64,000 nt of DNA from a bacterium (GCA_965216315.1 CBDCFN010000016.1:2144001-2208000); one strand, 5' to 3'; positions 12,229 through 40,305 are shown, counted from the stretch's first letter. Made by a program: numbers and translations. The notes: generated by a model from the letters alone, not told the origin.

Positions 12229-13530
12229 ATGAAACGCATTTTATTCTTACTTCCCATCCTGTTGGCCTACTCTGTCACGGCACATGCCCGCATCTACATC
12301 CGCATTGATGAAGTCGCCGAAAAGAAATTTCCGATCGCGATCACCAACCTCATCAACGACGGCGGCAAACGCGACAACAAAAACTGGTCACGCGAAATCC
12401 CCAAGATCCTGCAAAACGATCTGCGCATCTCGGGTCTCTTTGAATTTGTCGACCCGGAGATTTTTCCCGGCGAGGATTCAAACACATACAAGCCCGGTGA
12501 CGTGAAATTCCCGGCGTGGAACCTGCTTGGGATTCAGGGCCTCGTCAAAGGCGGTTTCACCTACGGAAGCGACGGCAAGGTCACGGCGTCGATCTATCTC
12601 TACGATCCTTCGCTGGGCCAAAAAATCGTCGCCCATGAGTACCGGGCCAACGCCGGTGAGTTCCGCAAGGTCGCGCACCATTTTGCCGACATGGTCATGG
12701 AAGCCCTCACCGGTTATCCCGGCATCTTTCGGACCCGCATTGCCTTTGTCTGCGGCAGCAAGAAGTCCGGTAAGGAAATCTGCAGCATGGGGGTCGACGG
12801 TAAAGAAGTCGCCAAGCACACCTCGGATCGCAACATCAATATCAGTCCCGAATTTTCCCCGGGCGGGGGCAAGATCGCTTACACCTCATTCACCGAGGAA
12901 GGGGATGCGGAAATCAAGGTGGTCAATGTCGGCTCGAAGTCGGTCCGGCAGATCACTAAAAAAGGCGGCATCAACCTCTCCCCAACCTGGACCCCGGGTG
13001 GCGGTCTTATCACCGCACTCGTCGGCGATAACGGCGACAACATCTACAACATCAGCATGAGCGGACGGCTCGTCAAGCGGCTAACCAATCATTGGAGTAT
13101 CGACATCGCCCCGTCATGGAGCCCGGGCGGCGACGCCTTTACCTTTTCTTCGGAACGGGCCGGCGGCCTGCACGTCTTCCGTGCCAATGCCGGCGGCGGC
13201 GGCGTGCAACGTTTGACCTTTGTCGGCTACCAGAATGATAACCCCGCCTGGTCGCCGGACGGTCAACGCATCATGTTTCAGGGACGTGACCAGGGAACCT
13301 GGGATCTCTTCATCATGAACCCGGACGGTTCGATGTTGCAGCGGCTCACCGCCGGCGCCGGCACCAATCAAGAACCGACCTGGGCCCCGAACAGCCAATA
13401 CATTGGTTTTGCCTCGAGCCGCGGCGGCGGCATGAGCATCTACATCATGAATGCGATGGGTGAGAACGTCACCAAGGTCGGCGGCGGAGTCATGCCGTCA
13501 TGGGGTCCGTTACCGAAGAAATCCCTATAA
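12229..13530 (+). CDS. tolB: TolB beta-propeller protein
   Basis: Signal peptide, TolB_N, AHHFAD...LTGYPGIFRTRIAF, PD40 repeats (PSWSPGG, PAWSPDG, PTWAPN). Confidence 0.96.
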   Translation: MKRILFLLPILLAYSVTAHARIYIRIDEVAEKKFPIAITNLINDGGKRDNKNWSREIPKILQNDLRISGLFEFVDPEIFPGEDSNTYKPGDVKFPAWNLLGIQGLVKGGFTYGSDGKVTASIYLYDPSLGQKIVAHEYRANAGEFRKVAHHFADMVMEALTGYPGIFRTRIAFVCGSKKSGKEICSMGVDGKEVAKHTSDRNINISPEFSPGGGKIAYTSFTEEGDAEIKVVNVGSKSVRQITKKGGINLSPTWTPGGGLITALVGDNGDNIYNISMSGRLVKRLTNHWSIDIAPSWSPGGDAFTFSSERAGGLHVFRANAGGGGVQRLTFVGYQNDNPAWSPDGQRIMFQGRDQGTWDLFIMNPDGSMLQRLTAGAGTNQEPTWAPNSQYIGFASSRGGGMSIYIMNAMGENVTKVGGGVMPSWGPLPKKSL

Positions 13531-15171
13531 CGCTAAGGCCTGCTCTAGATACTGCAAATTAATGCGCTCCGTCACGAGGCGCCTACGCTCCTGCTCCTGT
13601 TGACCTGTGAGTGTCTTGTCGACGAACACGAAATGATCCGGCCTGGTCTCGACCAACAATCCGTTATCACGCGCCCACTGCTCCATTTCCTGGTCCTTCT
13701 CAACAGCGAGGTAGAACAGGCGCATCCGCAAGTGATCACGCAGCTTCGTTTGGTCCTGGATTAACCCATCGACGTCAATCAAGGCGCTCAGACGATCCGC
13801 ATCAGACACGAACGGACCGGTATAGTTGCGCACCAAATCATACCCGGCTTCAATTCCCTTCCGGGCCCCGTCATTATGGTAGATCTCCGTAAGCTCTCTT
13901 TGCACTCCCGTCCAATCGATTCGCCATTTTTTATTCGCCAAATGGGTATGCCGGAGGAGAACGCTGAACACGGAGGCTTCGAGGCTCTCGCCAAACGTCT
14001 CGGAGTCCCCGATCAATTTATGAAGTATCTTAAAGATCTCTGCCTTGTAGGCTTGTTTGAAATCGCTATCGAACCAACCGGCGACCGTGTCTCCGAAGGT
14101 CGCGAACGTACCGAAGGCGCCGGCAATGAAGTCACCCCGTTCCTGGACGTTATAAATATCCTGACAGAGACGGATCACGTCAAAAAAGCGTTCGTCACTG
14201 TCACCCGTGAGCGCGTGACCAATCAGATCGGCCACCCCGCGGGCCCCCAGGTCAACGATACCGGCCCAGCCGACCAAGCGGGCCGTCCCGACAGCCAGTC
14301 GGGCGACGGCGGCCTTGGGACCCAAACCGCCGAGTTGGAACCCTTTGATGACGGACGTGGTTTCGAGAGCCTCGGCCAGGACCGGAACCTGAGTCGCCAA
14401 GGCGTAGGGAATCCCGGCCAACACGAGTCCTCCGAACATCGTCGCAGTTTCATCCGCCTCGACGCCGAGAAAATCGAGCAGGCCGTGCGCCAAATATTGG
14501 AAACCCATAAAGGTGGGAACCTGCCCGAGCGCTTGCAACGGGCTCTTCTGCACCAGTCCCGCCTTATACAGCCCCTGGTGAATCAACATAACGCTCGTAA
14601 ACAGGACCGGACTGCGGGCCTCTTCGGGCAAGACTCCCGCCTCAATCAGGCTTCCTATCAACCCTTGATCGAGGGCGACGACCACTGCGGCTCCCCCGAA
14701 AAGCGAGACGGTCAGCCCGAAGGTACCCGGCGTATTGGGTCCGTTCGGGCCACCCGTCGCGGCGCGCAGCGCGGAGGGAGCCGAACCGGCGCGCGACAGA
14801 GTCAATTGCATCGTCAGCTCGCCGTTGCTCATCACCATCTGACTCAGCCGGAACGAAATCGGCAAACGCCCTTCAACCGCCACCGCATAAAAGGGCTGTA
14901 AATAAGACTGCAGCGCCGGAGACAACTGTTTAAAGTGCCGTGTCAGCTCAAGATCTTGCTCAAAAGGCAAATCAAGCGAAAGCGGTTGTGGTGCGAGTAG
15001 CTTGGTCACGCCATTTTGAATGGGCACAGGTGACGCGATGGCTGTAGCGCCCGGCTCCGGTGCCAGCGCATCGACGACACACTGTAAAACATTGGCTTGC
15101 TCCTGACAAAGTGTCAGCGCTTGGCCGACGCGCGCCAAGCCGGTACTCGTCATTACCGTAACGAAACTCAT
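13525..15171 (-). CDS. Array gene 1: family A hydrophobic multi-helix protein (548 aa)
   Basis: LPISFR, GVLPEEARSP, PTFMGFQ, GWAGIVDLGARG, IRLCQDIYN, WRIDW, YTG, LTGQQ shared with 17715 and 29814; GGAGG RBS. Confidence 0.88.
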   Translation of the reverse strand: MSFVTVMTSTGLARVGQALTLCQEQANVLQCVVDALAPEPGATAIASPVPIQNGVTKLLAPQPLSLDLPFEQDLELTRHFKQLSPALQSYLQPFYAVAVEGRLPISFRLSQMVMSNGELTMQLTLSRAGSAPSALRAATGGPNGPNTPGTFGLTVSLFGGAAVVVALDQGLIGSLIEAGVLPEEARSPVLFTSVMLIHQGLYKAGLVQKSPLQALGQVPTFMGFQYLAHGLLDFLGVEADETATMFGGLVLAGIPYALATQVPVLAEALETTSVIKGFQLGGLGPKAAVARLAVGTARLVGWAGIVDLGARGVADLIGHALTGDSDERFFDVIRLCQDIYNVQERGDFIAGAFGTFATFGDTVAGWFDSDFKQAYKAEIFKILHKLIGDSETFGESLEASVFSVLLRHTHLANKKWRIDWTGVQRELTEIYHNDGARKGIEAGYDLVRNYTGPFVSDADRLSALIDVDGLIQDQTKLRDHLRMRLFYLAVEKDQEMEQWARDNGLLVETRPDHFVFVDKTLTGQQEQERRRLVTERINLQYLEQALAL

Positions 15172-15180: not shown

Positions 15181-17580
15181 TTAAATCATGAGCGAACGAT
15201 AGAAAGATTTCCGCTCCGGGTTCTCCGGATCAAGACTCTGCTCGAGCTGATGCCAGGATTCGATTTCCTGCTTGAGCTGAATCAGCTCTGATTTTGTCCC
15301 GTCACCAAAGACAAATTTACGCTGCTCTGTACTCAATTGATGATCCGGAATTTGCTTGGAGTAGTATTGCCCATTCGAAATATACCCCAATCCGACATCA
15401 TGGGCACGCTGTGCGACCTGCCGCTGCAGGCCTTGACGGATTCGTCCGACCAACTGCTGCAAGCGACCTGATTTCTCGGCACGCTGAATCAGGTCATGCA
15501 AGTAAGACTGCATTTCCCCGGGCATCCAGTCTCCACGCACTGGTTGCCCCGTGCGGAAGTCATAGGCCTGGCGATAACGACCAAAAGATCCGTCGGAATT
15601 TATCGTTTTGAGTAAACGAATCGCGCCGCGCACCGCGCGCTCGCGCGTCGTCCCGGTAAAAAGTTCGGCCAATTGCGGCAGTGAATGTTTAAGTGCCTTT
15701 CGGTATTCTTTTCGTTTGCTCTCGGTAAGCTCGGGATAGGCCTCACCACTATAGACGTCTTTGAGGCGCGCTTTGAGTGCCGTCCAGTTCACCTCCGCCG
15801 TCCATTTCCCGTAAAACGGATCTTTCGGCAACGACCGGCGCGTCTTGATCACGGTGATCAAGATTTCATCCTCGACGTTTTTCGCAAAGCGCTCGAGATT
15901 GGTCTGCCAATCGATCATCCGGGTCTTGATACCGCGCCAGATTTCTCGGTCGACGTCATCATCGACTGCCGAGCTCAGCGATTGCATGCCTCGCGCGATC
16001 GCCCCACCGAAGAAGTAGCCGACACTCCCCATATGTTCACGGAGTATCGTATCGTAGGCCGAGCGCATCAGTTTATAATCGGGATCGTCATCATAACCGG
16101 TCGCCGCCATGACACCGCTGACCGCCAACTCTCCGGCCCAGTTGCCGAGGCCGATGACGTTGACGGCATTGAAGGCCTGCACGCCGAGTGCGAGTCCCTT
16201 GGTCGCCGCCGAGGCCCCGGCCGGGATCCCGCTGGAGAGAAAAATGCGTCCCCCCCAAATACTGAAGAGAGGTCGTCCGCCGACCATGATCGGCCGCAGG
16301 GCCGCCAGGCCCGCGCCGGGCAAGCCTTGCGGCTGGACATAACGGGGAACAAGCGGGCTACGCCAAAGTTTGGCACCTGCACCCAGTTTTTGACTAAAGG
16401 CCGCCGTCTCATAAGCCAAGCGCAAGGGAGCGAGTTGCGAGGCGTAATGCGCCACGGCCATATAACCGCCCATCGTAATCCCGACACTCCCGATACTATT
16501 TTCAGGGCTCCCAAATTCCCAACCAAGACCATCCAAAAGAAAACCGGTGCCGACACTCGCGCCGAACATCATCGGCATACTGAGCCCGAGTGGATTCCAC
16601 TGGGGCCGGCCCATAAAACCGCGGCTCAGCAGACCATCGGCGACCAAGGACTCGCTGATCTGCCCCATCATTTCGTAGCTGGCGAGCATACCGCCCATCA
16701 CAAAGACCGGACGGATAGCGGGATCGAGATCCTGAAAGACCCCGAACTCAAAGGCAACGTAAATTCCGGTCGCCATCCCGACATGAAAACCGAGCCGTGC
16801 GACCGGACGAATCACGCGTTGTACCAGCGGATTTTTCAGGAAGCGTGATGCCGTAAAGAGCCCACCCAACAAAGGCGCCCCGGCTGTCAGCAGATCCTGA
16901 TCATCACCACCACGATTTGACTCCTGAGCCAACAGCAAACCTTCCTCAATGAGGATACCGGTCCGCACAATGCCCCGACTAAAAGGCTGTTCTGCAAGTT
17001 GAAAATCCGGCGCATAATTCGGTTGGTGTCCGGGCACATGCAAAATGACTTCATGACCATCGAGCCGGCGCTGCAACTGCCCTGCAATACGCGCGATGTC
17101 CTGGTCTGCATCGATCGGTACAAAACGGATCTGCGGCTTAAAAACGACCTCACGCCCTTCGAGCTCGGAGACCCATTCGACATAAAAGGCGGCTTGATCG
17201 GGACGGCGTGACTCCGTCTTCAAGACTTCATGGGCCATCGCGCGAAACAGCCTGGGCAGCTGATCTCGTTGTTCGGACAAGAGGTAGACGCGACCCGGCT
17301 CAATGCCCTCGAGAAAATACTCGATCTCCCCCTCGATCGCTTGCCGCTGCTGAAACCGCGCCTGCTCCTTTAAAGCCGAAACATCGCGTTCCAACCAGGG
17401 CTGTCGGGGGTCGGGTGTACTGACATAGCTATCCGAATAAAGAAGACCCTGGCTTTCGGCCATGGCCTGAGAAAAACCCGCCGCTTCATAACAGTGTCCG
17501 GCTACGGCGGTCGGTGCCGCCAGGGGGGTCACCCCGACGACGGCACAGTGCTGACTCACAAGGTTCGCAACGCAATTCAT
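15181..17580 (-). CDS. Array gene 2: family A protein (799 aa)
   Basis: MPMMFG..G..FGSPENSIGSVG, PDYKLMRSAYD, EVNW, LSTEQRKFVFGDG align to 22855 and 26903. Confidence 0.88.
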   Translation of the reverse strand: MNCVANLVSQHCAVVGVTPLAAPTAVAGHCYEAAGFSQAMAESQGLLYSDSYVSTPDPRQPWLERDVSALKEQARFQQRQAIEGEIEYFLEGIEPGRVYLLSEQRDQLPRLFRAMAHEVLKTESRRPDQAAFYVEWVSELEGREVVFKPQIRFVPIDADQDIARIAGQLQRRLDGHEVILHVPGHQPNYAPDFQLAEQPFSRGIVRTGILIEEGLLLAQESNRGGDDQDLLTAGAPLLGGLFTASRFLKNPLVQRVIRPVARLGFHVGMATGIYVAFEFGVFQDLDPAIRPVFVMGGMLASYEMMGQISESLVADGLLSRGFMGRPQWNPLGLSMPMMFGASVGTGFLLDGLGWEFGSPENSIGSVGITMGGYMAVAHYASQLAPLRLAYETAAFSQKLGAGAKLWRSPLVPRYVQPQGLPGAGLAALRPIMVGGRPLFSIWGGRIFLSSGIPAGASAATKGLALGVQAFNAVNVIGLGNWAGELAVSGVMAATGYDDDPDYKLMRSAYDTILREHMGSVGYFFGGAIARGMQSLSSAVDDDVDREIWRGIKTRMIDWQTNLERFAKNVEDEILITVIKTRRSLPKDPFYGKWTAEVNWTALKARLKDVYSGEAYPELTESKRKEYRKALKHSLPQLAELFTGTTRERAVRGAIRLLKTINSDGSFGRYRQAYDFRTGQPVRGDWMPGEMQSYLHDLIQRAEKSGRLQQLVGRIRQGLQRQVAQRAHDVGLGYISNGQYYSKQIPDHQLSTEQRKFVFGDGTKSELIQLKQEIESWHQLEQSLDPENPERKSFYRSLMI

Positions 17581-17604: not shown

Positions 17605-17631
17605 TTATCGGCGGAAATGCGGAAAAGTTCA
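17605..17631 (-). promoter_or_regulatory. Array promoter motif (sigma28-like)
   Basis: TGAACTT-ttccgcatttcc-GCCGATAA. Confidence 0.8.
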
Positions 17632-17678: not shown

Positions 17679-17727
17679 AAATCCCCTCGGATCCCTCCCT
17701 TTGAGAAAGGGAGGCTAGGAGGGATTT
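17679..17727. repeat. REP-like palindromic element overlapping the stop of gene 3
   Basis: cctccctttgagaaagggagg core hairpin with outer aaatccc/gggattt arms. Confidence 0.7.
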
Positions 17728-19400
17728 TTTAAAGCCAGTCTGAAACTCCGTAACTGCAAGAGCCGGACGGTGAGTCGCGCGCCTTCATTTTTCATGAAGG
17801 CGCGCTGCTCGGAGTTGAGATGGGACGGATGGATAAACTGATAACCGCCAGCGGGATTATCTTGGACGAGGCCCAAGGAACGTCCTTTATGTTCGAGTCG
17901 ACGCCGGACGCGCAAAAACTCGATCCGGGCATGGCGAGACATGAATCGTTTAAACGCCTTCATGTTACTAATCGTCCCTTTCGGGCTGATCATTTTAGTG
18001 ATATCATCGGCATCGCTGGCGTCGGGATGAAAGCCGGTATATTCCTTCACGAGTTCATACGCGCGTTTGATGTTTTTCTTGTTTTTGTCGTCTTGATAAA
18101 ATTCGCGCACCGAACGACGCACACCCTTCCAATCGATGGCCCATACGCCATTTTCGTTGCGCGTATTCTTCATGACAAGCGCGGTTAAATTCTGCCGCAT
18201 CGAGTCGCCAAACTGTTGGGACGCTTTGGTGAGTTTGTTTTGGATGCGGTCGAGATTCGCGTCGTAGTTCTTTTCGTAAGAACTGGAGACAGCCGATGCA
18301 ACCGTATCAATAGCGGTAATGAACATGCCGAAGGCGCTCGCCAAGAAACGACCGCCGTGCATCTCACTCCCCCGCTCCTGCAAATAGATCTGTTGACTCA
18401 AGCGGATCAGATCCCACTGGCGCCGTTCATCTCCTTTGAAAGCCAAACGACTGACGGCCCACAGCGCCCCGCGCGCCCCGAGATCAATCAAGCCAATCCA
18501 ACCGAGGGCCCGGGTCAAAACCGCGCCAACACGTAAGACCGCCGCCCCGCGCGAGGCTTGCAAGGCCGCCGAGGATTTAATTCCGAGGGCATGCGCCATC
18601 GTCGGCGAGACGGCGGCCAAGGCATAGGGCATCGAAGCCAGCGTCAGGCCGGCAAACTGGGTCACGGGAGAATTCAAATCCATGCCAGCCTTTTCCAACA
18701 GAAAATAAGACAACAACTGAAAGCCGTAGAAGGTCGGCATGTGCGCGAGCATCGCGCGCGGTCCCGTCGCGAAGACACCCAACTGATGCAATGCCATCGA
18801 CGCGAGATACACGCTGCCGAAAAGGGCCGGGATGCGCGCCTCTTCAGGGAGGAGGCCGTTGTCAATGAGGGACTTCAGTACAAAATGGTCATAGGCAACG
18901 ATAATACCCGCCGCCCCAACCATCCCGATGGTCAGACTCATCGGACTCGGGGGTCGAATCCCGGATGAGGCACCTGAAGGTCCCCCACCTGCGCTCCCCG
19001 GCCCACATTCAAGCGGTGTACTCTTAAAGAAATGAAAACGCGGCACCGTCACCCCTTCGGCCGTCACGGCCTGGGTCACCCGAAACGAGATCGGCAATTT
19101 TTGCGTAACGGCGAGTTGATAAAGACCGTGCAGATGGGGGCGTACTGAGGGCGGCAACTTCTTATAAAAATGCGTCAGGGAAAGGTCTTGATTCAGCGGC
19201 ACGGGCGTTGCCCCGCCGACGTACCAAAGCTCATTGGCAAAGAGTGAGATGGGATTGCGACGAAGAGGCGCGGCCGCCGGCGTATCGACTGAATTATAAT
19301 GATCAAGTCCGGGCGTACCGCCGCCGCAAGTCATCGACTCCCATTTGATTGTCGCTGCCGCGGCAGCGGACACACCGGACACCATACACACCGCACCCAT
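17715..19400 (-). CDS. Array gene 3: family A protein (561 aa, Lys-rich)
   Basis: Start set at MGAVCM (GGAGG RBS); SFRVTQAVTAEGVTVP, LPEEARIP, MPTFYGFQ, WAIDW, EYTG, LNSEQRAF. Confidence 0.9.
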   Translation of the reverse strand: MGAVCMVSGVSAAAAATIKWESMTCGGGTPGLDHYNSVDTPAAAPLRRNPISLFANELWYVGGATPVPLNQDLSLTHFYKKLPPSVRPHLHGLYQLAVTQKLPISFRVTQAVTAEGVTVPRFHFFKSTPLECGPGSAGGGPSGASSGIRPPSPMSLTIGMVGAAGIIVAYDHFVLKSLIDNGLLPEEARIPALFGSVYLASMALHQLGVFATGPRAMLAHMPTFYGFQLLSYFLLEKAGMDLNSPVTQFAGLTLASMPYALAAVSPTMAHALGIKSSAALQASRGAAVLRVGAVLTRALGWIGLIDLGARGALWAVSRLAFKGDERRQWDLIRLSQQIYLQERGSEMHGGRFLASAFGMFITAIDTVASAVSSSYEKNYDANLDRIQNKLTKASQQFGDSMRQNLTALVMKNTRNENGVWAIDWKGVRRSVREFYQDDKNKKNIKRAYELVKEYTGFHPDASDADDITKMISPKGTISNMKAFKRFMSRHARIEFLRVRRRLEHKGRSLGLVQDNPAGGYQFIHPSHLNSEQRAFMKNEGARLTVRLLQLRSFRLALKNPS

Positions 19401-19443
19401 GAGCACCTCCATTTGTTTCGCACCTAATGGGCTGACTATTTAG

Positions 19444-19470
19444 TTATCGGCGGAAAATCGCGGAAGTTCT
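19444..19470 (-). promoter_or_regulatory. Array promoter motif (sigma28-like)
   Basis: AGAACTT-ccgcgattttcc-GCCGATAA. Confidence 0.8.
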
Positions 19471-20653: not shown

Positions 20654-20724
20654 AAGTAGCCTCCTAATGATCACTCCAGGCGCACCCTCGTTAATAAGGG
20701 TCGCACCCTGAACTCCTCAATGGA

Positions 20725-20751
20725 TTATCGGCGGGAGCTGACAAAAGTTGC
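20725..20751 (-). promoter_or_regulatory. Array promoter motif (sigma28-like)
   Basis: GCAACTT-ttgtcagctccc-GCCGATAA. Confidence 0.85.
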
Positions 20752-22786: not shown

Positions 22787-22813
22787 TTATCGGCGAGGAT
22801 TCGCAAGAGTTGC
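22787..22813 (-). promoter_or_regulatory. Array promoter motif (sigma28-like)
   Basis: GCAACTC-ttgcgaatcctc-GCCGATAA. Confidence 0.85.
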
Positions 22814-24869: not shown

Positions 24870-24896
24870 TTATCGGCGGGGATTCGCAAGAGTTGC
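24870..24896 (-). promoter_or_regulatory. Array promoter motif (sigma28-like)
   Basis: GCAACTC-ttgcgaatcccc-GCCGATAA. Confidence 0.85.
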
Positions 24897-26834: not shown

Positions 26835-26861
26835 TTATCGGCGACGCTTCGCAAGAGTTGC
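26835..26861 (-). promoter_or_regulatory. Array promoter motif (sigma28-like)
   Basis: GCAACTC-ttgcgaagcgtc-GCCGATAA. Confidence 0.85.
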
Positions 26862-29569: not shown

Positions 29570-29637
29570 GACACTCCTCGACCCTCTCACACACACGCAT
29601 TCAGCCAACCCAAGGCTTTACACATACACAGCCTAAG

Positions 29638-29664
29638 TTATCGGCCTCGGCTTACGAAAGTTGC
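29638..29664 (-). promoter_or_regulatory. Array promoter motif (sigma28-like)
   Basis: GCAACTT-tcgtaagccgag-GCCGATAA. Confidence 0.85.
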
Positions 29665-31854: not shown

Positions 31855-31863
31855 TGAAATTAA

Positions 31864-33177
31864 TTACGGAACTAAGACGGGCGCCGCCCGTGGCACAAAA
31901 ACCGGCGCCACTTCGGGGACAACAACCGGTTGCGGGACCGTTATCGGTGCCGGAACCACCGTCACGCTCGGGGCGACAACACCGTTCACATTCACGGCAC
32001 TGACATTACCAGGAAGCGTGGCGCTGACCGGATTCGTTCCGCCCATCTGCATCATGCCGGTGAGCAGTGTGTCCGCCGTAAAGGTCTGGTGGGCACCGCT
32101 GTTAACCGCCACGGCATTGTTAATGCCGGTACTCATGGCCGACTCAAAAAAGCTCGTCCACTGGGCCTGATTCCAGCCCATGTCACCGCCGATGCCATTG
32201 TTCATAAAGGTCTGGGCCATCAGCGGCGCGACTTGTTGCGCAAATCCCTCGGCGGAATAACAGGAATCCGCGAGATGAGCCAACTCCGCCGGCAGGGGTA
32301 TATCCACGCCTGCGACGTTGGCCATCAAGACCGGACTCGTCATGGCGGAAAAACCAGCGGCTTGCGGCTCCGTCACCGGAGAAGAATCGCCGGCAGACAC
32401 AGGCTCACTGGCCCCATCACTCACCGGTGCCGTTTCACCCTGGGGAGCCACCGCGCCTTGGCCTTGAGCCGCTAAAAACTCAGCGAACATGCGGCCGGCT
32501 TGCTCGGGCGAAATACCGCCGCCGCCACCGTTGCCATCACCATCGCCATTCCCGCCACCGCGGCGGTTTTTCAGCCAATTTTTGAAGCTATGGTAAACAT
32601 CCGGACCGACGGTAAAGGCCGCCAGTAGGAAGAAAAATTCTACGAGGTGGTCTTGGGTCGGGGGACGCAGACGTTCCATCGATGAGGCGAGCGCATCACA
32701 TTGTTGATCCGACAGACCCGTCGGACATTCGCCATCGAACCAATGCAGAGGATTGTACCAGCTTTCACCGCCCCGAATCGTGCGAATGATCCCTTCACGA
32801 ATCGCCGGTTGATCGGCCTTGATGCACAGGGTCCCGGCACGGCCACCGAAGGCGGATAGGGAGACACGATCTTGAGACATGTTAGGAAAACCGCGGACGG
32901 CGTCGGCGGCATCATGGTCGAAAGTCGCCCCATGTGGACCGGAATCGGCAATCTCGTAGTAGCCCTGTCGCGAGTCGCAAGAACGTAAAGTTTCGCCGAT
33001 ATAATCGGCCCAGGGCTGGTCGCCGCTGGTGATAGTCGGGTCGGGAACGATCACGCCACCTTGCGTAAAAACCGCTCCGGGTTTATCTTCCGTGGCTCCA
33101 TAGGCCGTTCCCGGATTGGCTCGACACAGGCCGTTATGCCCCTCTAGATTTGACGCACCATAAAGATCGCATCCCAT
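31864..33177 (-). CDS. Array gene 10: family B protein (437 aa), six-Cys domain, TM, Pro/Val tail
   Basis: MGCDLYGAS (TAAGGAG RBS), GLCRANPGTAYG, GYYEIADSGP, CIKADQP, EFFFLLAAFTVGPD. Confidence 0.92.
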   Translation of the reverse strand: MGCDLYGASNLEGHNGLCRANPGTAYGATEDKPGAVFTQGGVIVPDPTITSGDQPWADYIGETLRSCDSRQGYYEIADSGPHGATFDHDAADAVRGFPNMSQDRVSLSAFGGRAGTLCIKADQPAIREGIIRTIRGGESWYNPLHWFDGECPTGLSDQQCDALASSMERLRPPTQDHLVEFFFLLAAFTVGPDVYHSFKNWLKNRRGGGNGDGDGNGGGGGISPEQAGRMFAEFLAAQGQGAVAPQGETAPVSDGASEPVSAGDSSPVTEPQAAGFSAMTSPVLMANVAGVDIPLPAELAHLADSCYSAEGFAQQVAPLMAQTFMNNGIGGDMGWNQAQWTSFFESAMSTGINNAVAVNSGAHQTFTADTLLTGMMQMGGTNPVSATLPGNVSAVNVNGVVAPSVTVVPAPITVPQPVVVPEVAPVFVPRAAPVLVP

Positions 33178-33299
33178 ATACAACTCCTTACGCAACGGGC
33201 GCCCAAACGCCCATGTTATACACTACACGCTGTCTAAACTAGGTGCTGAGTTCCATGCACAGCACACGACACTTTTAAACACACGCTTACTCATAGGCA

Positions 33300-33326
33300 T
33301 TATCGGTGTCGATTTGCGAAAGTTGC
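33300..33326 (-). promoter_or_regulatory. Array promoter motif (sigma28-like)
   Basis: GCAACTT-tcgcaaatcgac-ACCGATAA. Confidence 0.85.
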
Positions 33327-33433
33327 GGTAAATTCGCAAGGGGCTGACGAAAATTAGAAAAACCGTCCCAAAATTGGCAAGAAACAGGCTCTAGGGGGCC
33401 CTCTCAACCCCCCAGGCCTGCAATTAGAAGTGC

Positions 33434-34756
33434 TTATAAGGGCACGGGAACCGGCGCCATTCGCGGCACCACGACGGGAGCCACGCGCGGCGTAACAACC
33501 GGCGCGACGCGCGGAACCACCACCGGGGCCGGAACCGCCGTTGGGGCGGGCGTCGGGATGGCCGCCGGATTCGCGGCCCGGACCCGACCGGGAACGGTCG
33601 CGGCGACCGAACTGACCCCGCCGAGCTGCATCATCCCGTCAAAGAGCGTATCGGCGGTCCGCGTCGTGCCGGCGGGTGCCGCCGTGGAAGCAGCCGCGTT
33701 ATTGATGCCGCTCGTCAGCGCGGATTGAAAGACACGGGTCCACTGGGCCTGATTCCAGCCCAGCTCACGACCAATGCCATTACGCATGGCCAATTGGGCA
33801 AAGATCGGTGCCGCTGCCTGGGCAAATCCCTCAGGAGTGTAAGAAACATCGGCCAAATGAGCCATCTCGGCAGGCAAGGCCATTTCAACCCCAGCCACTC
33901 GCGCCGTCACGCCGGAAACCGCCGTAAAAGTCGCAACCGGTGCCTCGGAAGCTGGGGTCTCCTCACCGGCCGGGGCCGCTTCGCCGGCTCCCTCCGCTTG
34001 GGGCGCGGCGTCAGCTTGGCCGGGAGCCGCGTGCATCGCAGCCAGGGCGCGGCCGAGCTGTTCCGGTGTCATCTCGATGTTGCCACCGCCACCGCCACTG
34101 CCTCCATTACCATCGCCATTGCCGCCATTGCGGCGGCTTTGGATCCATCTTTTCAGGGCGTGGTAGACATCCGGGCCAATCGTGAAGGCCGCGATCAAGA
34201 AGAAAAACTCGGTGAGATGGTCCTGCTGCGGAGGACGCAAATGTTCCATCGACGTCGCCAAGGCCTCACATTGTTGGTCGGAGAGTCCCGTCGGACATTC
34301 CCCGACAAACCAGCGCGCCGGTGAATAGTTCACATACCAGGGCCGGTTCCCGCGAATATGGCGGATGATTCCCTCACGTACCGCTGGTTGATCGGCGCGG
34401 AGACACAGGGTTCCGGGTCGGCCCGCGTGAGCGGAGAAAGACGCCCGATCTTGCGACATATTGGGGAAAGTTCTGACCACATCGGCAGAGGTATGATTGA
34501 AGGTCGCACCGTTGGGTCCTGAATCGGCAATTTCATAGTACCCTTGACGTGCGTCACAGGATCTCAGGCTCTCGCCGTGAAAGGCGCTCCACGGCTGGTC
34601 GTTAGCAGGCCGGGTCGGATCGGGAACGATGACCCCAGCTTGCGTCATAACGGCGCCGGGGCGACCGTCTCTAGGTCCGTAAGCCGTGCCCGGATTAGCG
34701 CGGCACAGACCGGGCTGCCCTTCCAAATTAGACGCACCATACAGATCGCAAGTCAT
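33434..34756 (-). CDS. Array gene 11: family B protein (440 aa, 1 Lys)
   Basis: MTCDLYGAS...; same conserved domain; tail has three PRxAPV repeats. Confidence 0.92.
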   Translation of the reverse strand: MTCDLYGASNLEGQPGLCRANPGTAYGPRDGRPGAVMTQAGVIVPDPTRPANDQPWSAFHGESLRSCDARQGYYEIADSGPNGATFNHTSADVVRTFPNMSQDRASFSAHAGRPGTLCLRADQPAVREGIIRHIRGNRPWYVNYSPARWFVGECPTGLSDQQCEALATSMEHLRPPQQDHLTEFFFLIAAFTIGPDVYHALKRWIQSRRNGGNGDGNGGSGGGGGNIEMTPEQLGRALAAMHAAPGQADAAPQAEGAGEAAPAGEETPASEAPVATFTAVSGVTARVAGVEMALPAEMAHLADVSYTPEGFAQAAAPIFAQLAMRNGIGRELGWNQAQWTRVFQSALTSGINNAAASTAAPAGTTRTADTLFDGMMQLGGVSSVAATVPGRVRAANPAAIPTPAPTAVPAPVVVPRVAPVVTPRVAPVVVPRMAPVPVPL

Positions 34757-34762
34757 AATCGG

Positions 34763-34800
34763 CTCCTTTTGCCGTCAACGAGGTCGTTGACTAAAAGGAG
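34763..34800 (-). promoter_or_regulatory. mRNA hairpin sequestering the Shine-Dalgarno of gene 11
   Basis: mRNA CUCCUUUU-A-GUCAACG-ACCU-CGUUGAC-GGC-AAAAGGAG; the 3' arm is the RBS 6 nt before the ATG at 34756. Confidence 0.7.
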
Positions 34801-34855
34801 GCACTGCCTGGCTTAGGCCTGTTTGATTGATTTGGATAAGGTTTACCCGCGTCAT
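34775..34855 (-). CDS. Candidate 26-aa leader peptide MTRVNLIQINQTGLSQAVPPFSQRPR
   Basis: GGAGG 6 nt before the ATG; lies between the promoter and gene 11; stop falls inside the SD-sequestering hairpin. Confidence 0.55.
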   Translation of the reverse strand: MTRVNLIQINQTGLSQAVPPFSQRPR

Positions 34856-34900
34856 AGTGTGCCTCCGGTTACGGAAGTCCACCATAACAACCCAATGTGG

Positions 34901-34927
34901 TTATCGGCATGGCCTTGCGAAAGTTGC
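34901..34927 (-). promoter_or_regulatory. Array promoter motif (sigma28-like)
   Basis: GCAACTT-tcgcaaggccat-GCCGATAA. Confidence 0.85.
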
Positions 34928-34969
34928 GGGGAATTCGCAAAAGGCTGACGAAAATTGGGAACCGTTGTC

Positions 34970-35074
34970 TCCCCCTTTGTAAAGGGGGACTAAGGGGGAT
35001 TTAAGAGACGTCACGCAAATCCGTCTCTCGGGGTAAATTAAATCCCTCCTAACCTCCCTTTACAAAGGGAGGGA
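34970..35074. repeat. BIME-like pair of inverted REP-like palindromes (variant)
   Basis: tccccctttgtaaagggggactaagggggattt ... aaatccctcctaacctccctttacaaagggaggga. Confidence 0.75.
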
Positions 35075-35100
35075 GCGCGAGTGCTGCAAGACGGGGCATT

Positions 35101-36090
35101 TTAAGGTATCGCCGGCACCAAACTCGGCTTGACGACCGGCACCGGCGCGCCCTTCGGGACAACCGGCGGCGCTGGAACGACCGGAACGGGAGGCGTCGCG
35201 ACAGGGGCTTTAGCCCCCTTGGCACCGGGCGTTGCTTTCGCTACGGGACTCTTGCTTCCATTCTGCAATTCAGCGTCAACGAAGCTATCAGCGGTAAATG
35301 GCTGGGCACTCGCGGGCTGCGCATTGGGTTGGACCTCCGGCTGAGGCGCGGTCTCGCCCTTGGCAGCCGCCGCCGCAGCCATCACCTGCGCCAACTGTTC
35401 CGGCGTCATTTCGATGTTCCCGTTCCCCCCGCCGGGACCACCGCCCTTGTCTCCCCCACCCCGATTTTTCCACCAATTCTTAAGTCCATGATAGATATCG
35501 GGACCGATGGTGAAAGCCGCGATCAAAAAGAAGAACTCCATCAGATGATTTTGCTGCGGGGGGCGCAGGGTTGACATCGAGTGGGCCAGGGCGTGGCATT
35601 GTTGATCATCAAGATCCTCGGGGCAGTCCCCGTCAAACCACGCCAAGGGGTTCCACCAGTCCTCCTTGCCCCAGAGCTTATAGATCAGGCCCTCGCGAAT
35701 CGCCGGTTGATCCGCCTTGACGCAGAGGGTCCCCGGCTTGCCACCAAAGGCGGATAAGGACACGCGGTCCTGCGACATGTTAGGAAATTTCCGGATCACA
35801 TCGGCCGACTTATGATCAAAGGTCGCGCCGTTGGGACCTGAGTCGGCAATCTCGTAGTAACCCGACCTAGAATCACAAGAACGCAGGCTCTCACCGTGAT
35901 AGGCCTCCCAGGGCTGGTCGTTCTTCGCCCGCGTCGGATCCGGGACAATGGTCCCGCTCTGGGTCATCACCGCGCCGGGTATCTTTTTGTTGTCGGAATT
36001 CTTTTGTTCGCCGTAGGCCGTACCGGGATTGGCGCGGCAGAGTCCTGGCTGTCCGGGAAGATCGGAAGCACCGTAGAGATCACATCCCAT
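35101..36090 (-). CDS. Array gene 12: family B protein (329 aa, Lys-rich)
   Basis: MGCDLYGAS...; same conserved domain; short Pro/Val/Lys tail. Confidence 0.92.
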   Translation of the reverse strand: MGCDLYGASDLPGQPGLCRANPGTAYGEQKNSDNKKIPGAVMTQSGTIVPDPTRAKNDQPWEAYHGESLRSCDSRSGYYEIADSGPNGATFDHKSADVIRKFPNMSQDRVSLSAFGGKPGTLCVKADQPAIREGLIYKLWGKEDWWNPLAWFDGDCPEDLDDQQCHALAHSMSTLRPPQQNHLMEFFFLIAAFTIGPDIYHGLKNWWKNRGGGDKGGGPGGGNGNIEMTPEQLAQVMAAAAAAKGETAPQPEVQPNAQPASAQPFTADSFVDAELQNGSKSPVAKATPGAKGAKAPVATPPVPVVPAPPVVPKGAPVPVVKPSLVPAIP

Positions 36091-36160
36091 TGTATTTCTC
36101 CTAGTTAAAGGGGTCCCAAGCCCTTAGTTAGTCGAAATACGCACCTAGACGTGTATCTAG

Positions 36161-36187
36161 TTATCGGTCCGGGTTTGCGAAAGTTGC
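36161..36187 (-). promoter_or_regulatory. Array promoter motif (sigma28-like)
   Basis: GCAACTT-tcgcaaacccgg-ACCGATAA. Confidence 0.85.
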
Positions 36188-36228
36188 GGGAAATTTGCAA
36201 GAAGTTGTCGAAAATTCGGAAAAATGGG

Positions 36229-36308
36229 TTCCCTCCCCTTACTTAAGGGGAGGGTTAGGGAGAGGTCTTTCTCGACCTCCCCTAGCCCCTCCTTCGTAAG
36301 GAGGGGAA
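36229..36308. repeat. BIME-like pair of inverted REP-like palindromes
   Basis: ccctccccttacttaaggggagggttagggagaggt...gacctcccctagcccctccttcgtaaggagggg. Confidence 0.8.
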
Positions 36309-36318
36309 ATACAATTAA

Positions 36319-37422
36319 CTACGGAACCACCGGCACCGGAGCCGCCCGCGGCACGAAGACCGGAGCCCTGACTGCAAAGGGTCGAGGGGCTGCAACGATG
36401 GGGACAGGCGGAGCGATTGTGGTCGGCTTGACTCCTGCCTTGCCGGCAGGCAGGCCCTTCGCGACCGGGACCTGACCCGCTGTCGTGGAACGGATGGCCT
36501 TGGCGCCACCATACTGCAACATCCCATGGATCAGACTATTGGCAACAAAGGTCTTGGGCTCGGTTGCCTGGGGCGCCTTGGCGGGTTCACCTTGCGCGGC
36601 AGCCACTCCCGCTAAAATTTGGCCGAGCTGTTCAAACGTGATGCTGTCGCCGCCACCACCACCATTACCTTTGCCGTCGCCATCACCACCGTTACGTTTA
36701 CTCTGAATCCAGCGCTTTAGGGCATGGTAGACATCAGGGCCGATCGTAAAAGCCGCCAGCAGGAAAAAGAACTCCACGAAGTGGTTCTGGCTCGGCGGCC
36801 GCAGGTTTTCCATCGAAGTCGCGAGGGCCGTGCACTGCTTATCCGTCAGTCCTTTTGGGCACTCACCTGCATCCCCCATAAACAGGCGCAAGGGCGTATA
36901 ACGGACATACCAGGGCATATCCCCATTAATCTTGCGAATAATCCCCTCGCGTATCGACGGCTGATCGGCCTTGATACACAGCGTCCCGGCCCGGCCGGCA
37001 TGCGCGGAAAAGAACACGCGTCCCTGCGACATATTAGGGAATTTGCGGACGACGTTGGCCGAGTGCTTATTAAACGTCGCGCCTTTCGGACCGGAATCGG
37101 CAATTTCATAATAACCGCGGCGCGAATCGCACGACCACAGCTTCTCACCGAAAAATTTGCTCCAAGGTTGTTTATTGTGGGGAAGCTTGGGATCGGGGAC
37201 GATCGTCCCGGTTCCGGTAATGACAGCACCTGTGCGACCCTTTTTCGGTCCGTAGGCCGTTCCGGGATTGGCGCGACACAGGCCACTGGGCTTGCGGACA
37301 CGGGCCGCCTTATTCGGGGATGAAACGACTTTCCCGGTTGCGTCGAGATATTGACCTTTGCGGTTCACACGCGGAACCGTGCGCATGATCGGTGATGCAC
37401 CGTACAAATTACAACTTGCCAT
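36319..37422 (-). CDS. Array gene 13: family B protein (367 aa, Lys-rich twin of gene 11)
   Basis: MASCNLYGAS plus a basic insertion of about 30 aa before GLCRANPGTAYG; shares SAHAGR and HALKRWIQS with gene 11. Confidence 0.92.
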   Translation of the reverse strand: MASCNLYGASPIMRTVPRVNRKGQYLDATGKVVSSPNKAARVRKPSGLCRANPGTAYGPKKGRTGAVITGTGTIVPDPKLPHNKQPWSKFFGEKLWSCDSRRGYYEIADSGPKGATFNKHSANVVRKFPNMSQGRVFFSAHAGRAGTLCIKADQPSIREGIIRKINGDMPWYVRYTPLRLFMGDAGECPKGLTDKQCTALATSMENLRPPSQNHFVEFFFLLAAFTIGPDVYHALKRWIQSKRNGGDGDGKGNGGGGGDSITFEQLGQILAGVAAAQGEPAKAPQATEPKTFVANSLIHGMLQYGGAKAIRSTTAGQVPVAKGLPAGKAGVKPTTIAPPVPIVAAPRPFAVRAPVFVPRAAPVPVVP

Positions 37423-37584: not shown

Positions 37585-40305
37585 CTATTGATACAGAATG
37601 TTCTGCATCTCTTGAAAACGCGCCTCATCAAAAACAAAATTATTTCCATGAGATCCTCCACGCAAGAACGTCGACGAGGATGAGGATGAATGGCAACCGC
37701 TAGGACAGGGATTAGAATTCGGCTGCGGACCCGTCATGTCGAAGCGAATGTCTTTAAAGTCGTCATCTTTGGATTTGAAATCCTTGCTGACCGTGAAATC
37801 GATCGATTCGACGAATTTCTCCGGACCTTTGGCCTTGAGGACCTGGCGCAGCTGCTCCAAAAAGAGAATTTGGGCGCGGCGGATTTCGCCCTCCGGCCGC
37901 GGCCGCCCAACCTGTTTGCCGCCGGCAGCGGTAACGCGCGCGCCGCGAAAGAACTTCCGCTGCTCTTCCGTGTACTCCGGATTGCCCGCAGCATTAAACT
38001 TAGGCGCGAGCTTCATCATCACGTGGCCGGTGTGTGTCACGGTCGGGTCCAGCGTAATCATTTGCGGCTCACCGGTTTGAGGATCGATTTTCTTTTCACC
38101 CGTCTCAGGGTCCACAGCCGGCAAAGTATCCCGCATGATGAGCGTGTAATTCTTGGCCTGTTCATTCCAAGCAGCCTCAATCTTGGTCGTTAACTCCGTA
38201 CCTTCCTTGCGCATCATCAGATGGATGACGCCGTCCTTCGTCCGTTTGATTTCGATGTGAATCCCGTCATTAAAAGCGACTTCACCGTAACTATCGTAAA
38301 GAATGGAGAGGGGAAATTTGCGAACACCGGCACTCGTCTTAATAACGACTTCATCCTGATCGACGCCGCTCGGTGACTTGGTCTGATGGATTTCGACGGA
38401 AACACCGAGTCCTACTTCAGCCATGCGATGGTAGAGATCGGCATATTTTTTGCGAATAAAGGTCGTCAGGTGTGTTTCTAAATCACGGCGGCCTTTAAAC
38501 ATTTTTTCAAGGTAGTTGGAAACCGCTTGGATATCCGGCTGCTTATTTGCATAGAGCGCCCGTATGTCGGCACCCCGTTGCACATACGCCTTGTCATCGG
38601 TCGCCGCGATCAAATCAATGACCTTAAAGGTCCCACTCATATCGTTCTGTTTAACGAAGTCCTGGAGAATGGATTCGACGGTATTGTAATCGATGAAATA
38701 ATCTTTACCGGTAATCGCCCGCGTCTCGGCATCCGCTTGGCGCATCCCTTCCCAACTCGCGGGAAAGGCGACGTTCTTAACGAACTGATTCGGAAAGGTG
38801 ATCCCCGCGCCTTCCAGCCATTGATTGTAGACCTTGGATATCTTGGCATTAGCCTCACTGCCGCCGGTCACCAGACCTTTGACACAAATCGACCACTTCT
38901 TGATGCTGGGAAACCACGAGTCATTGATGCTCTTGCCGTAGACCTCATTAAACAACGCCTCATTCAGCGAGTAATCGGCATTGCGAAACGCCGGCGACCA
39001 AATTTGTTCGCCGATGCCCAGGCCCAATTCAAAAGACAGCGGGACGCCATAAGCCAACGACGCGCCTTCAATCAACAAACCACCGCCGCGCGCCAGCCAA
39101 CCGTAGCTTGAATTGCGCATGATTGACGTGCCCAGCGATCGATAGCCGAGCCGTTGGCCCTGCGTCTTGGCGAGCGTCGACGCCGCGGCCGCGCGTACCG
39201 CATAACCTTTAAACAACTTCGAATACAGGGCCGCCGGCAAGCCGGCACTGATCAGTAAGTTACCCGTACCGCCCTTCTTGAGCGTTTCGATCCCTCCCCA
39301 ACCGCCTCCGATCCAGTGGGTCAATTCACTCGTAATCCCGGACACAACGACGAGTTCACCGCCGACCTGCTTGAATTGCGTCCAACTAAACGCCGGAATC
39401 TCCGGTGCACTCGGCATCAACATGCGGGGAAAGGTGTTGTTGTAAGTATGACGCAGCAAGGAGTATTCGGCACCCCCGAGCGCGATATTTGAAAACACGC
39501 GCTGATAAGGGTCATCGATACCGAGGGCCTGGGATTGTTGATCAACCGCCCAGTAGGCCGCCGCATAAGGGACAGCAACCCCTAAACCCTTAAAAATAAC
39601 TCGCGGGGTATTATGGTAAAAATTTTGCACTAGCTTCGGGGACAATGCAGCCACACCCCCAGCGAGCACGGTCGAACTCGACATGCCAAAAGAATTGGTA
39701 TCGAGCTTCGGTCGTTGCTTGATTTTCTGACCATACTCGTGCGGATGGACGACGGCATAGACTGGCGTCGGTCCGCCGGATGCGACTGGACGCGTGTAGA
39801 ACTCTTCATTCGCACCGGGCTTATAGTCGGGATACTCATGCGAGGGCGCGCGATGGAGCAAGACGATCGGGCGCCCGCCCTTGACGTACTTGACGCTCAT
39901 GAACCAACCGACCTTGTATTCCTGCGGCGGGCGCAATGAAGCCGGCATTTCATCATAAATGGAATTGACGGGAATGCGCTTGTCATCGGTAAACGTCTTG
40001 CGCAAGTACTGATACTCGTCGATCTCTTCCGCGGCGAGAAAATTGGCACCGAAGTTGAGGACGCGATCCGATTTTTGATCGATATCATAAACGATGGGCA
40101 GGCCGGATGACGTATCCGTTTCGTTTTTCCTGCTAAAATCCGCCGCAAAAAAGACCGGCTCGCTCGTCGGCCCAAAAATCAGTGCGGGGGGAACCGCCAC
40201 GCCCTGTCCTTCCTTGATAGGAGGCGTTACCATCATCTCCCCATGGTCCGCATAGAATTGCGGCTTGGTGTAGCGGCAGACGGATATTGTCGGATCACAA
40301 GTCAT
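37585..40305 (-). CDS. Array gene 14: divergent family A protein (906 aa, Lys-rich)
   Basis: MTCDPTISVC; AVDQQSQALGIDDPYQ vs MVDYSIAKLDLPEPYQ (gene 6); ADYSLNEALFNEV vs PHYRLLQAAFDSV; YTEEQRKFFRG vs LSTEQRKFVFG. Confidence 0.82.
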   Translation of the reverse strand: MTCDPTISVCRYTKPQFYADHGEMMVTPPIKEGQGVAVPPALIFGPTSEPVFFAADFSRKNETDTSSGLPIVYDIDQKSDRVLNFGANFLAAEEIDEYQYLRKTFTDDKRIPVNSIYDEMPASLRPPQEYKVGWFMSVKYVKGGRPIVLLHRAPSHEYPDYKPGANEEFYTRPVASGGPTPVYAVVHPHEYGQKIKQRPKLDTNSFGMSSSTVLAGGVAALSPKLVQNFYHNTPRVIFKGLGVAVPYAAAYWAVDQQSQALGIDDPYQRVFSNIALGGAEYSLLRHTYNNTFPRMLMPSAPEIPAFSWTQFKQVGGELVVVSGITSELTHWIGGGWGGIETLKKGGTGNLLISAGLPAALYSKLFKGYAVRAAAASTLAKTQGQRLGYRSLGTSIMRNSSYGWLARGGGLLIEGASLAYGVPLSFELGLGIGEQIWSPAFRNADYSLNEALFNEVYGKSINDSWFPSIKKWSICVKGLVTGGSEANAKISKVYNQWLEGAGITFPNQFVKNVAFPASWEGMRQADAETRAITGKDYFIDYNTVESILQDFVKQNDMSGTFKVIDLIAATDDKAYVQRGADIRALYANKQPDIQAVSNYLEKMFKGRRDLETHLTTFIRKKYADLYHRMAEVGLGVSVEIHQTKSPSGVDQDEVVIKTSAGVRKFPLSILYDSYGEVAFNDGIHIEIKRTKDGVIHLMMRKEGTELTTKIEAAWNEQAKNYTLIMRDTLPAVDPETGEKKIDPQTGEPQMITLDPTVTHTGHVMMKLAPKFNAAGNPEYTEEQRKFFRGARVTAAGGKQVGRPRPEGEIRRAQILFLEQLRQVLKAKGPEKFVESIDFTVSKDFKSKDDDFKDIRFDMTGPQPNSNPCPSGCHSSSSSSTFLRGGSHGNNFVFDEARFQEMQNILYQ

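Follow-up and report, generated by a model that had tools for sequence, protein, structure and literature searches.

A family of Gly/Ala-rich helical proteins behind sigma-28-type promoter boxes in an uncultured bacterium: candidate late substrates of a type III secretion system

The translocators of type III secretion systems (T3SS) are composed of an unstructured N-terminus, central hydrophobic helices, and a helical C-terminus. The Inc proteins constitute lineage-specific, expanded sets of paralogs without known domains. In Pseudomonas syringae, the effector genes are marked by the box of an alternative sigma factor (the hrp box of the HrpL regulon), and such boxes have revealed the arsenals of plant pathogens. 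A layout like that of the translocators and an expansion like that of the Inc proteins are both found in the proteins described here as family A, which are encoded by nine genes in a stretch of 64,000 nucleotides from an uncultured bacterium (GCA_965216315.1 CBDCFN010000016.1:2144001-2208000; "the window" refers to this whole stretch). These genes belong to an island of 44 kb, formed by 22 co-oriented open reading frames (ORFs; g1 to g22, Table 1) on the minus strand (13525-57381), in a genome of 2.96 Mb that is 98% complete.

Known domains are scarce in the island: Pfam (E<=0.01) recognized an FHA domain in two proteins and an AAA domain in a third, and the other 19 of the 22 proteins have none. 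The paralogs, a promoter box common to most of the island, and the type III machine encoded by the same genome are the observations on which the present reading is built; family A would so probably be exported and inserted in the membrane of a target cell. According to this reading, to which we give nearly, but not quite, an even chance, the family A proteins are late T3SS substrates, either membrane-inserting effectors or accessory translocator-like proteins, and not core parts of the machine.

Promoter boxes and the T3SS locus

The intergenic regions of the island contain 17 copies of the box GCAACTYT-n11-GCCGATAA (consensus ATTTTCCGCAACTTTCGCAA...GCCGATAAC), for 17 of the 22 genes. The genes with a box of their own are g2 to g8, g10 to g13, g15, g17 to g20, and g22, while g1, g14, and g16 are located 0-27 bp downstream of a boxed gene. 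In the window, 13 exact matches to GCAAC-N16-CGATAA are found, when 0.03 are expected, and none of 100 shuffled sequences reached this number. Twelve of the 13 matches are found in the island, and the remaining one (61941-61967) lies 5' of a gene with thrombospondin type 3 (TSP3) repeats at 62007. With looser matching, 13 of the 65 sites of the genome fall within the island, which represents 1.5% of it. In the 17 island sites, [GC]CGATA[AC] is found at the n11 spacing, that is, with the -10 element and the spacing of sigma-28 promoters: an excerpt of one source gives the sigma-28 consensus as TAAAGTTT-n11-GCCGATAA (PMC2859248), and an excerpt of another gives GCCGATAA as the -10 element (PMC12784957).

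The box is not restricted to the island. It also stands 5' of genes of family A in a further four genomes (G010, G001, G002, and G036), and similar boxes are located in or beside the T3SS locus of the genome that holds the island (at 347331, 360553, and 362888, before genes without a Pfam family, plus a variant with n12 spacing at 368180). Eighteen box-preceded genes in other parts of this genome were also scanned, namely 18 of the first 20 hits of a position weight matrix (PWM) with products of at least 150 amino acids (aa), once two genes already covered had been dropped. Ten of them lack a Pfam family, four encode enzyme domains, two encode tetratricopeptide repeats (TPR), and two (YchF and DUF4423) correspond to apparent chance sites. 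Three of the enzyme domains (Aminotran_5, Exo_endo_phos, and FGE-sulfatase) stand behind 60-100 aa of N-terminal extension; the fourth is a weak Metallophos. The simplest account of the boxes would be that the island belongs to a regulon of sigma-28 type connected with the T3SS; the reading to which this account belongs, taken as a whole, remains slightly short of an even chance.

A second element was noticed at 40-60 bp 5' of the boxes (for example at 26862-26900 and 24897-24935), where two or three phased half-sites similar to TTGCGAA/TTCGCAA (TTTGCGAATTTTCGTCAAATT) are found, with another copy in the spacer. These half-sites suggest the binding of an additional regulator over these promoters.

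The T3SS locus (G000:C16:339-360.5 kb) holds the only FHIPEP gene of the genome. It also encodes two FHA/Yop-YscD_cpl proteins, YscJ_FliF, a FliG_C-like protein, FliH/SctL, the ATPase, YscO, a FliK/HpaP-like protein, FliM, FliN, FliO, FliP, Bac_export_3, Bac_export_1, and a sigma factor of 299 aa. The best family of the latter is FliA_WhiG (133 bits), and it is the top FliA_WhiG match of the genome. SctU and a secretin of 989 aa are encoded outside the locus. Neither flagellin nor Flg_bb_rod was found in the 98% complete genome, and FHIPEP, the gate of the T3SS, is present in 41 of the 41 genomes of the phylum that were tested. A literature search on the T3SS of this phylum found nothing relevant. 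The locus mixes parts of flagellar type (FliG_C-like, FliO, FliM, and the FliA-like sigma factor) with parts of injectisome type (FHA/YscD-type proteins and the SctJ lipoprotein), and it may be an informative intermediate for the origin of injectisomes.

Directly after the T3SS locus, at G000:C16:370-372 kb, two LcrH/SycD-like genes (the two best matches of the genome, with 77 and 70 bits, below the cut-off) adjoin proteins of 624, 601, and 298 aa of unknown family. The region after a T3SS locus, beside genes of the LcrH/SycD type, is the usual site of translocators. A search for the SseC family (PF04888) gave nothing in the genome at E<=1. A TPR protein of 147 aa in the T3SS locus was considered as a translocator chaperone and set aside, with only 40 bits to LcrH_SycD; from its position before sctJ, it is presumably a needle chaperone.

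Membership, history, and predicted shape of family A

Eight members (g1, g2, g3, g5, g6, g7, g8, and g9) are joined by all-against-all BLASTP, with E values that range from 1e-6 to 1e-145. The closest pairs are g6/g8 (2e-145), g5/g7 (2e-90), g1/g3 (1e-84), and g1/g9 (3e-63), and the comparisons across groups give values of 1e-6 to 1e-34. The ninth member, g14, has no BLASTP match at 1e-3, is missed by a hidden Markov model (HMM) of the eight members among the 270 ORFs of the window, and is aligned by hhalign through the C-terminal motif alone (15% probability). It was found by a profile of 50 family sequences built without g14, which matched residues 66-831 with an E value of 8.5e-11 (39.5 bits) among 6370 six-frame ORFs from the entire genome; the next ORF had an E value of 0.28. 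This match and a cysteine tag common with g5 and g7 are the reasons why the nine proteins are treated as one family, with g14 as a remote member. No additional copy was found elsewhere in the genome. The nine paralogs that a first-pass annotation had proposed are, in consequence, nine ORFs that align significantly, eight of them by BLASTP and g14 via the 50-sequence profile only. The ordered core that it had described can be followed in the MAFFT consensus, whose motifs are, in order: QLP..., I.FRV, TGGP, A.D..L...L...G..PEEARGP, SMP.F.G.Q, YRL.RLA.DI, S..FG..VED.L, IDW, GL...L...QR.F, and L..L.QAL.

The cysteine tag, C[DN][PS]x[ILMVT]xxC near the start of the protein, is found in this genome only in g5, g7, and g14. 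The form C[DN][PS]x4C within the first 30 residues is present in 17 of 79 family representatives, which belong to several clades (15 of the 71 from other sources). It could serve as a signal for export or as a site of metal binding or acylation, and a second motif, GPVC, often comes after it.

Family A has no match in Pfam, NCBIfam, PHROGs, or PADLOC. When the family profile was run against 1.84 billion representative proteins, 79 matches were obtained at E<=1e-3, eight of which are the window's own. Among the nine relatives listed for one member, three carry a source name, in each case "hypothetical protein", and none has a Pfam domain. By these library scans and source names (no literature search was aimed at the family itself), family A is a previously unnamed and unannotated family restricted to one phylum. 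This phylum comprises 93 species genomes of one class, with sizes of 1.1-4.6 Mb. Family A was detected in 26 of them, in 12 of the 24 families, with 1-8 matches per genome, and no copy was detectable in the remaining 67. The surroundings are partly kept: in G001 the g18-like, g19-like, family B (described below), and family A genes stand together, and in G010 genes similar to g22 and g18 precede family A. A search for related loci with the alignment of the 1/3/9 subgroup found one locus, on a contig of G001, while the same search with g7 alone found nothing.

The history of the copies was followed in a quick IQ-TREE phylogeny of 48 rows (8 from the window, 10 from four other genomes, and 30 representatives), which left out g14, fragments below 450 aa, all representatives after P0050, and duplicates. 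The clades 1/3/9, 5/7 (including P0009), and 6/8 have a support of 100 each in the approximate likelihood ratio test (SH-aLRT). The subgroups of the first-pass annotation are to this extent correct; in its fourfold group of g6, g8, g2, and g14, the 6/8 pair is the supported clade, g2 joins this pair only loosely, and g14 is not among the rows of the tree. The window copies are interspersed with foreign ones, to the point that the "window" label needs seven changes for eight rows: the nearest row to g1 is a copy from G001, the nearest to g7 is P0009, and only g6 and g8 are sisters. Therefore, most copies are old paralogs and not recent duplicates. The diversification by duplication suggested earlier holds in that these are true diversified paralogs, but most of them are old and have nearer kin in other genomes.

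For g1, AlphaFold2 provided a confident all-alpha model from the 50-sequence alignment (mean predicted local distance difference test, pLDDT, of 82.5), which was one of the checks that the first-pass annotation had called for. The model begins with a disordered segment (1-72), followed by an alpha/beta unit (73-127), a Gly-rich linker (128-149), and a region of hydrophobic helices (150-270), where the Gly/Ala-rich helices occupy residues 150-177, 183-203, 218-234, and 241-261. Next come a bundle of long helices (285-407) and a C-domain (409-547) whose end is a helical hairpin (474-547). The layout common to the family is the same: an unstructured N-terminus, the alpha/beta unit, the Gly-rich linker, four or five Gly/Ala-rich helices, the long-helix bundle, and the helical C-domain. 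Conserved Asp, Arg, Gln, and His residues are found inside the "hydrophobic" helices.

The whole g1 model had a best Foldseek E value of 0.12 against the PDB, and VIA-align against 48,161 chains gave a best Z of 7.6 (root-mean-square deviation of 2.5 A over 63 residues), for the C-terminal hairpin only. The central domain (146-410), modelled alone with a pLDDT of 77.9, reached a Foldseek E value of 1.1 and a VIA-align Z of 6.0 over 55 residues. These values are usual for helical proteins, and therefore neither a new fold nor a kinship with pore formers is claimed. In the ESM Atlas, the best score was 0.83, for unnamed clusters; RTX, colicin, and Gly-zipper clusters scored 0.78, below the threshold of 0.9 for a lead. 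A complex prediction for g9 (residues 80-637) with g10, a member of family B, reached no verdict, the score being 0.00 in two runs.

By inspection, no Sec signal peptide was found in the 22 island proteins, and no lipobox in family A. The top Kyte-Doolittle peaks over 19 residues are of 1.21-1.86 in the nine family A proteins, compared with 2.21-2.95 in the inner-membrane proteins SctV, SctR, SctS, SctT, TolQ, and TolR of the same genome. The Kyte-Doolittle scale is crude, and a delta-G predictor was used instead in a study of T3SS membrane proteins (PMC6110835). In an excerpt of that study, the hydrophobicity of transmembrane T3SS substrates is placed slightly under the threshold for inner-membrane targeting, and the modest values of family A match the substrates as they are published there. 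The family does not look like ordinary Sec-inserted transporters or enzymes, the case that had been named as opposing the first-pass annotation: it has no match in the four libraries and its hydrophobicity is modest.

Weighing the readings

If the family A proteins are late T3SS substrates, the FliA/WhiG-like sigma factor from the T3SS locus would transcribe the island via the boxes, and, the sigma factor being common, family A would be made together with other T3SS-linked genes. The modest hydrophobicity of the Gly/Ala-rich helices, together with their putative packing on long amphipathic helices, would keep the proteins soluble in the cytoplasm of the producer. The unstructured, weakly charged N-terminus, often with the C[DN]Px4C tag, would direct export by the T3SS. 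The hydrophobic helices would then insert in the membrane of the target cell, a eukaryotic host or bacterial prey, and the paralogs would perturb or remodel this membrane. What goes beyond the sequence facts is inferred, namely that this sigma factor reads the box, that the proteins are exported and inserted in membranes, and which cell is their target.

Several observations weigh against this reading. In the island, g9 and g21 lack a box and no TPR or T3SS chaperone gene was found. The -35 element GCAACTYT agrees with TAAAGTTT in four or five of eight positions, thus departing from the sigma-28 consensus, and the 133 bits of the sigma factor are under the curated FliA_WhiG cut-off of 189.6. 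The ranking of the island sites by the PWM is circular, since the matrix was built from them, and for this reason the exact-pattern count against shuffles was used. The island is not adjacent to the T3SS locus, and in G001 and G010 the gate gene and family A are found on separate contigs. The first 30 residues contain 13% of charged residues against a background of 19%, which is only mildly unusual; N-terminal composition was set aside as a secretion signal, the shift being modest. The match lists of Foldseek and VIA-align, both for the whole chain and for the central domain, contained no chain of a colicin, ClyA/Hbl, RTX protein, or translocator. In this sense, the lack of fold relatives among known translocators and pore formers gives the reading no support, though it would remain compatible with a kinship. 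The relationships to the colicin pore, ClyA/Hbl, YopB/IpaB, or RTX that the first-pass annotation had proposed to look for were accordingly not recovered by Pfam, Foldseek, or VIA-align, and the ESM score for such clusters was only 0.78. Finally, the FHA, AAA, and single-hydrophobic-segment proteins of the island might just as well belong to a machine that stays bound to the cell.

A more far-reaching form of the reading is that needle-type injection is here run by the logic of flagellar late genes and that family A, with a fold not seen among solved structures and its N-terminal C[DN]Px4C tag, is a new class of injected, alpha-helical proteins that insert in membranes or form pores; this is possible, although we consider it unlikely. 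If true, the box could serve to read the effector repertoire of the phylum from its genomes. If the main reading is right, the box would offer a direct and testable means of cataloguing what this uncultured phylum secretes, a large family without a fold match in the PDB would join the proteins that are soluble in their producer and then enter the membrane of another cell, and a non-flagellar T3SS under a FliA-type sigma factor would bear on the origin of the injectisome from flagella. If the reading is wrong, there is still a block of 44 kb and 22 genes, 19 of them without a known domain, apparently under one regulatory signal (with g9 and g21 boxless).

Among the alternatives, the one that survives best, unlikely as it is, places family A in the producer's own envelope, as subunits of a cell-bound machine or of a membrane-remodelling system under sigma-28-type control and without secretion. 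The two FHA proteins and the AAA protein of the island, the several proteins with one hydrophobic segment, a C-terminal module of g4 and g16 to g21 that could serve for docking, and the synteny in G001 and G010 all agree with such a machine; sigma-28 regulons, moreover, also hold proteins that are not exported, such as those of the motor and chemotaxis. However, the hydrophobic peaks of family A are far under those of the cell's own inner-membrane proteins, signal peptides and lipoboxes are absent by inspection, the distribution is patchy (26 of the 93 genomes), and no known envelope-machine family besides FHA and AAA is found among the 22 proteins.

It is rather improbable that family A is a core exported part of the T3SS (the translocon pore or an appendage) which has diverged past detection in most genomes. 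The genome has no detected translocator of the SseC family, the promoters are of the late class, g14 illustrates how far the divergence can go (a deep profile being needed), and the layout, in which hydrophobic helices stand between an unstructured N-terminus and a coiled hairpin at the C-terminus, is like that of the major translocators. An accessory role is preferred because the family is patchy, with nine copies here and none detected in 67 of 93 genomes, while the gate gene is present in every genome tested (41 of 41), and because the two LcrH/SycD-like genes and the proteins of 624, 601, and 298 aa follow the T3SS locus, whereas the island has no TPR chaperone. The earlier description of family A as translocator-like is favoured by its context (boxes of sigma-28 type and a non-flagellar T3SS with a FliA-like sigma factor), but a core translocon fits poorly.

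Still less probable is that the proteins are soluble cytoplasmic bundles, acting as scaffolds or regulators, in which the Gly/Ala-rich helices form the core of the fold and have no membrane role. The compact, confident helical fold given by AlphaFold, the modest hydrophobicity peaks, and the conserved Asp, Arg, Gln, and His within the "hydrophobic" helices are what such bundles would show. On the other hand, four or five successive Gly/Ala-rich helices are kept across very divergent members, the genes appear, from their boxes, to be co-regulated with those that flank the T3SS locus, and the ESM leads, weak as they are, point toward pore-forming families.

That family A consists of antibacterial pore-forming toxins for competition or predation, with family B or another neighbor as immunity protein, is very improbable, for although family B genes lie directly 5' of family A genes (g15-g14, at 27 bp; g10-g9; and before b1 in G001) and the other three genomes with family B (G001, G073, and G074) all have family A, there are nine A copies for five B copies, family B is large (329-443 aa), family A is conserved over its full length and not as a constant carrier with a variable toxin tip, and the library scans of the island proteins found no domain of the type VI secretion system (T6SS), contact-dependent inhibition (CDI), or polymorphic toxins.

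The remaining island and comparison with described systems

The features of the island are listed in Table 1. The genes g15 and g14 are probably co-transcribed.

Table 1. Genes and promoter boxes of the island (positions in the window).
Feature	Position	Strand	Remarks
g1, family A	13525..15171	-	548 aa; subgroup 1/3/9; 9 bp after g2, no own box
g2, family A	15181..17580	-	799 aa; loosely with 6/8 side
Promoter box 5' of g2	17605..17631	-	TGAACTTT-n11-GCCGATAA
g3, family A	17715..19412	-	565 aa; subgroup 1/3/9
Promoter box 5' of g3	19444..19470	-	
g4, not family A	19562..20674	-	370 aa; one hydrophobic segment and common C-terminal module, Arg-rich tail
Promoter box 5' of g4	20725..20751	-	
g5, family A	20778..22751	-	657 aa; subgroup 5/7; N-terminus MCDSTIQSC (Cys tag)
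Promoter box 5' of g5	22787..22813	-	
g6, family A	22855..24825	-	656 aa; sister of g8
Promoter box 5' of g6	24870..24896	-	
g7, family A	24960..26786	-	608 aa; subgroup 5/7; N-terminus MCNPTTQCC (Cys tag)
Promoter box 5' of g7	26835..26861	-	
g8, family A	26903..29608	-	901 aa; long extensions at N- and C-terminus
Promoter box 5' of g8	29638..29664	-	
g9, family A	29814..31727	-	637 aa; subgroup 1/3/9; boxless; 136 bp upstream with three GC-rich hairpins
g10-g13, family B paralogs	31864..37422	-	329-443 aa
Own promoter boxes of g10-g13	33300-33326, 34901-34927, 36161-36187, 37483-37509	-	
g14, remote family A	37585..40305	-	906 aa; N-terminus MTCDPTISVC; 27 bp after g15
g15, family B	40333..41613	-	426 aa
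Promoter box 5' of g15-g14 pair	41651..41677	-	
g16-g22, remainder of island	41731..57381	-	g16, g17, g18 (FHA), g19 (AAA), g20 (FHA), g21, g22
Boxes in g16-g22 part	43328-43354, 45875-45901, 49385-49411, 53023-53049, 57489-57515	-	

Family B comprises five genes (g10 to g13 and g15; 31864-37422 and 40333-41613), whose products are 51-65% identical in a full-length alignment. They start with M(G/T)C(D/E)LYGAS; when g10 and g15 are read from an internal start, three of the five begin with MGC. Their N-domain, of about 200 aa, has seven conserved Cys; behind it come a single hydrophobic helix (FFFLIAAFTIGPD), a linker rich in Gly and Asp, a variable region, and a C-terminal tail rich in Pro and Val. 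No match was found in Pfam, NCBIfam, PHROGs, or PADLOC. Family B is present in 4 of the 93 genomes, all of which hold family A.

A C-terminal module of about 100 aa (LPAEARLS...W...PLLRDG...) with an Arg-rich end similar to RRRGR is common to g4, g16, g17, g18, g19, g20, and g21; its carriers are located at 19562-20674 and 41731-55242, and g20 contains several repeats of it. Such a module could serve for docking or targeting. After its FHA domain, g18 (43393-45831) contains a pattern of Cys, His, and Asp (GVCNERG ... GGRHAWV ... ILDPQ) which, by eye and with no library match, resembles the core of transglutaminase-like cysteine proteases. Sequence searches of the PDB with g18 and g19 gave no match.

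GC-rich hairpins of the form CCCCTCC...GGAGGGG are found after the stop codons of several island genes (31728-31863, 17581-17714, and 36091-36318), with three in succession between g10 and g9. They have no T-run and look like terminators or repeat elements. Beyond the island, the plus strand encodes two large proteins with thrombospondin type 3 repeats (57890-61756 and 62007-63998), and at 1768-3469 lie an MbnB/TglH/ChrH (DUF692) gene and, after it, a DUF2063 gene, a pair typical of peptide modification of the ribosomally synthesized and post-translationally modified peptide (RiPP) type.

Regarding the described systems, family A shares with the colicin pore domain, ClyA/Hbl/Nhe, and RTX proteins a helical nature, a buried block of hydrophobic helices, and a proposed switch from the soluble to the membrane state, but it has no Pfam match to them, and its VIA-align matches are only helical hairpins of 55-63 residues. 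The SctE/SctB translocators (YopB, IpaB, SipB, EspD, and PopB; SseC, PF04888) are similar in size range, in the lack of a Sec signal, and in having a producer that bears a T3SS. They have one or two hydrophobic helices, whereas family A has four or five, counts nine paralogs, and is patchy, and it lacks a sequence match, a fold match, and an adjacent class II TPR chaperone gene (LcrH/SycD).

The transmembrane T3SS effectors (chlamydial Inc proteins, Tir, and SseF/SseG) have, as presented in part of a published study, moderately hydrophobic helices like those of family A (PMC6110835). The family A proteins are much larger, are conserved over their full length, and end in a helical C-domain that is structured; no homology to these effectors was detected, and their secretion is presumed. 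Two traits of T3SS substrates as a class are found here: the producer has a T3SS with which the genes appear to be co-regulated, as the box is common to the island and to genes that flank the T3SS locus (its pairing with the sigma factor being putative), and the hydrophobic segments fall under the range of inner-membrane targeting on the Kyte-Doolittle scale.

In terms of regulation, one short box before nearly every gene is also the arrangement of the hrp box/HrpL regulon. Another such case is the class 3 regulon of flagellar sigma-28 (PMC2859248; PMC12784957). HrpL is a sigma factor of the extracytoplasmic function (ECF) type with a different box, while in the present case the sigma factor gene is located within the secretion locus. 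With respect to the flagellar sigma-28 regulon, the -35 element differs (GCAACTYT instead of TAAAGTTT), and the system for which the FliA/WhiG-like sigma factor seems to work is not flagellar.

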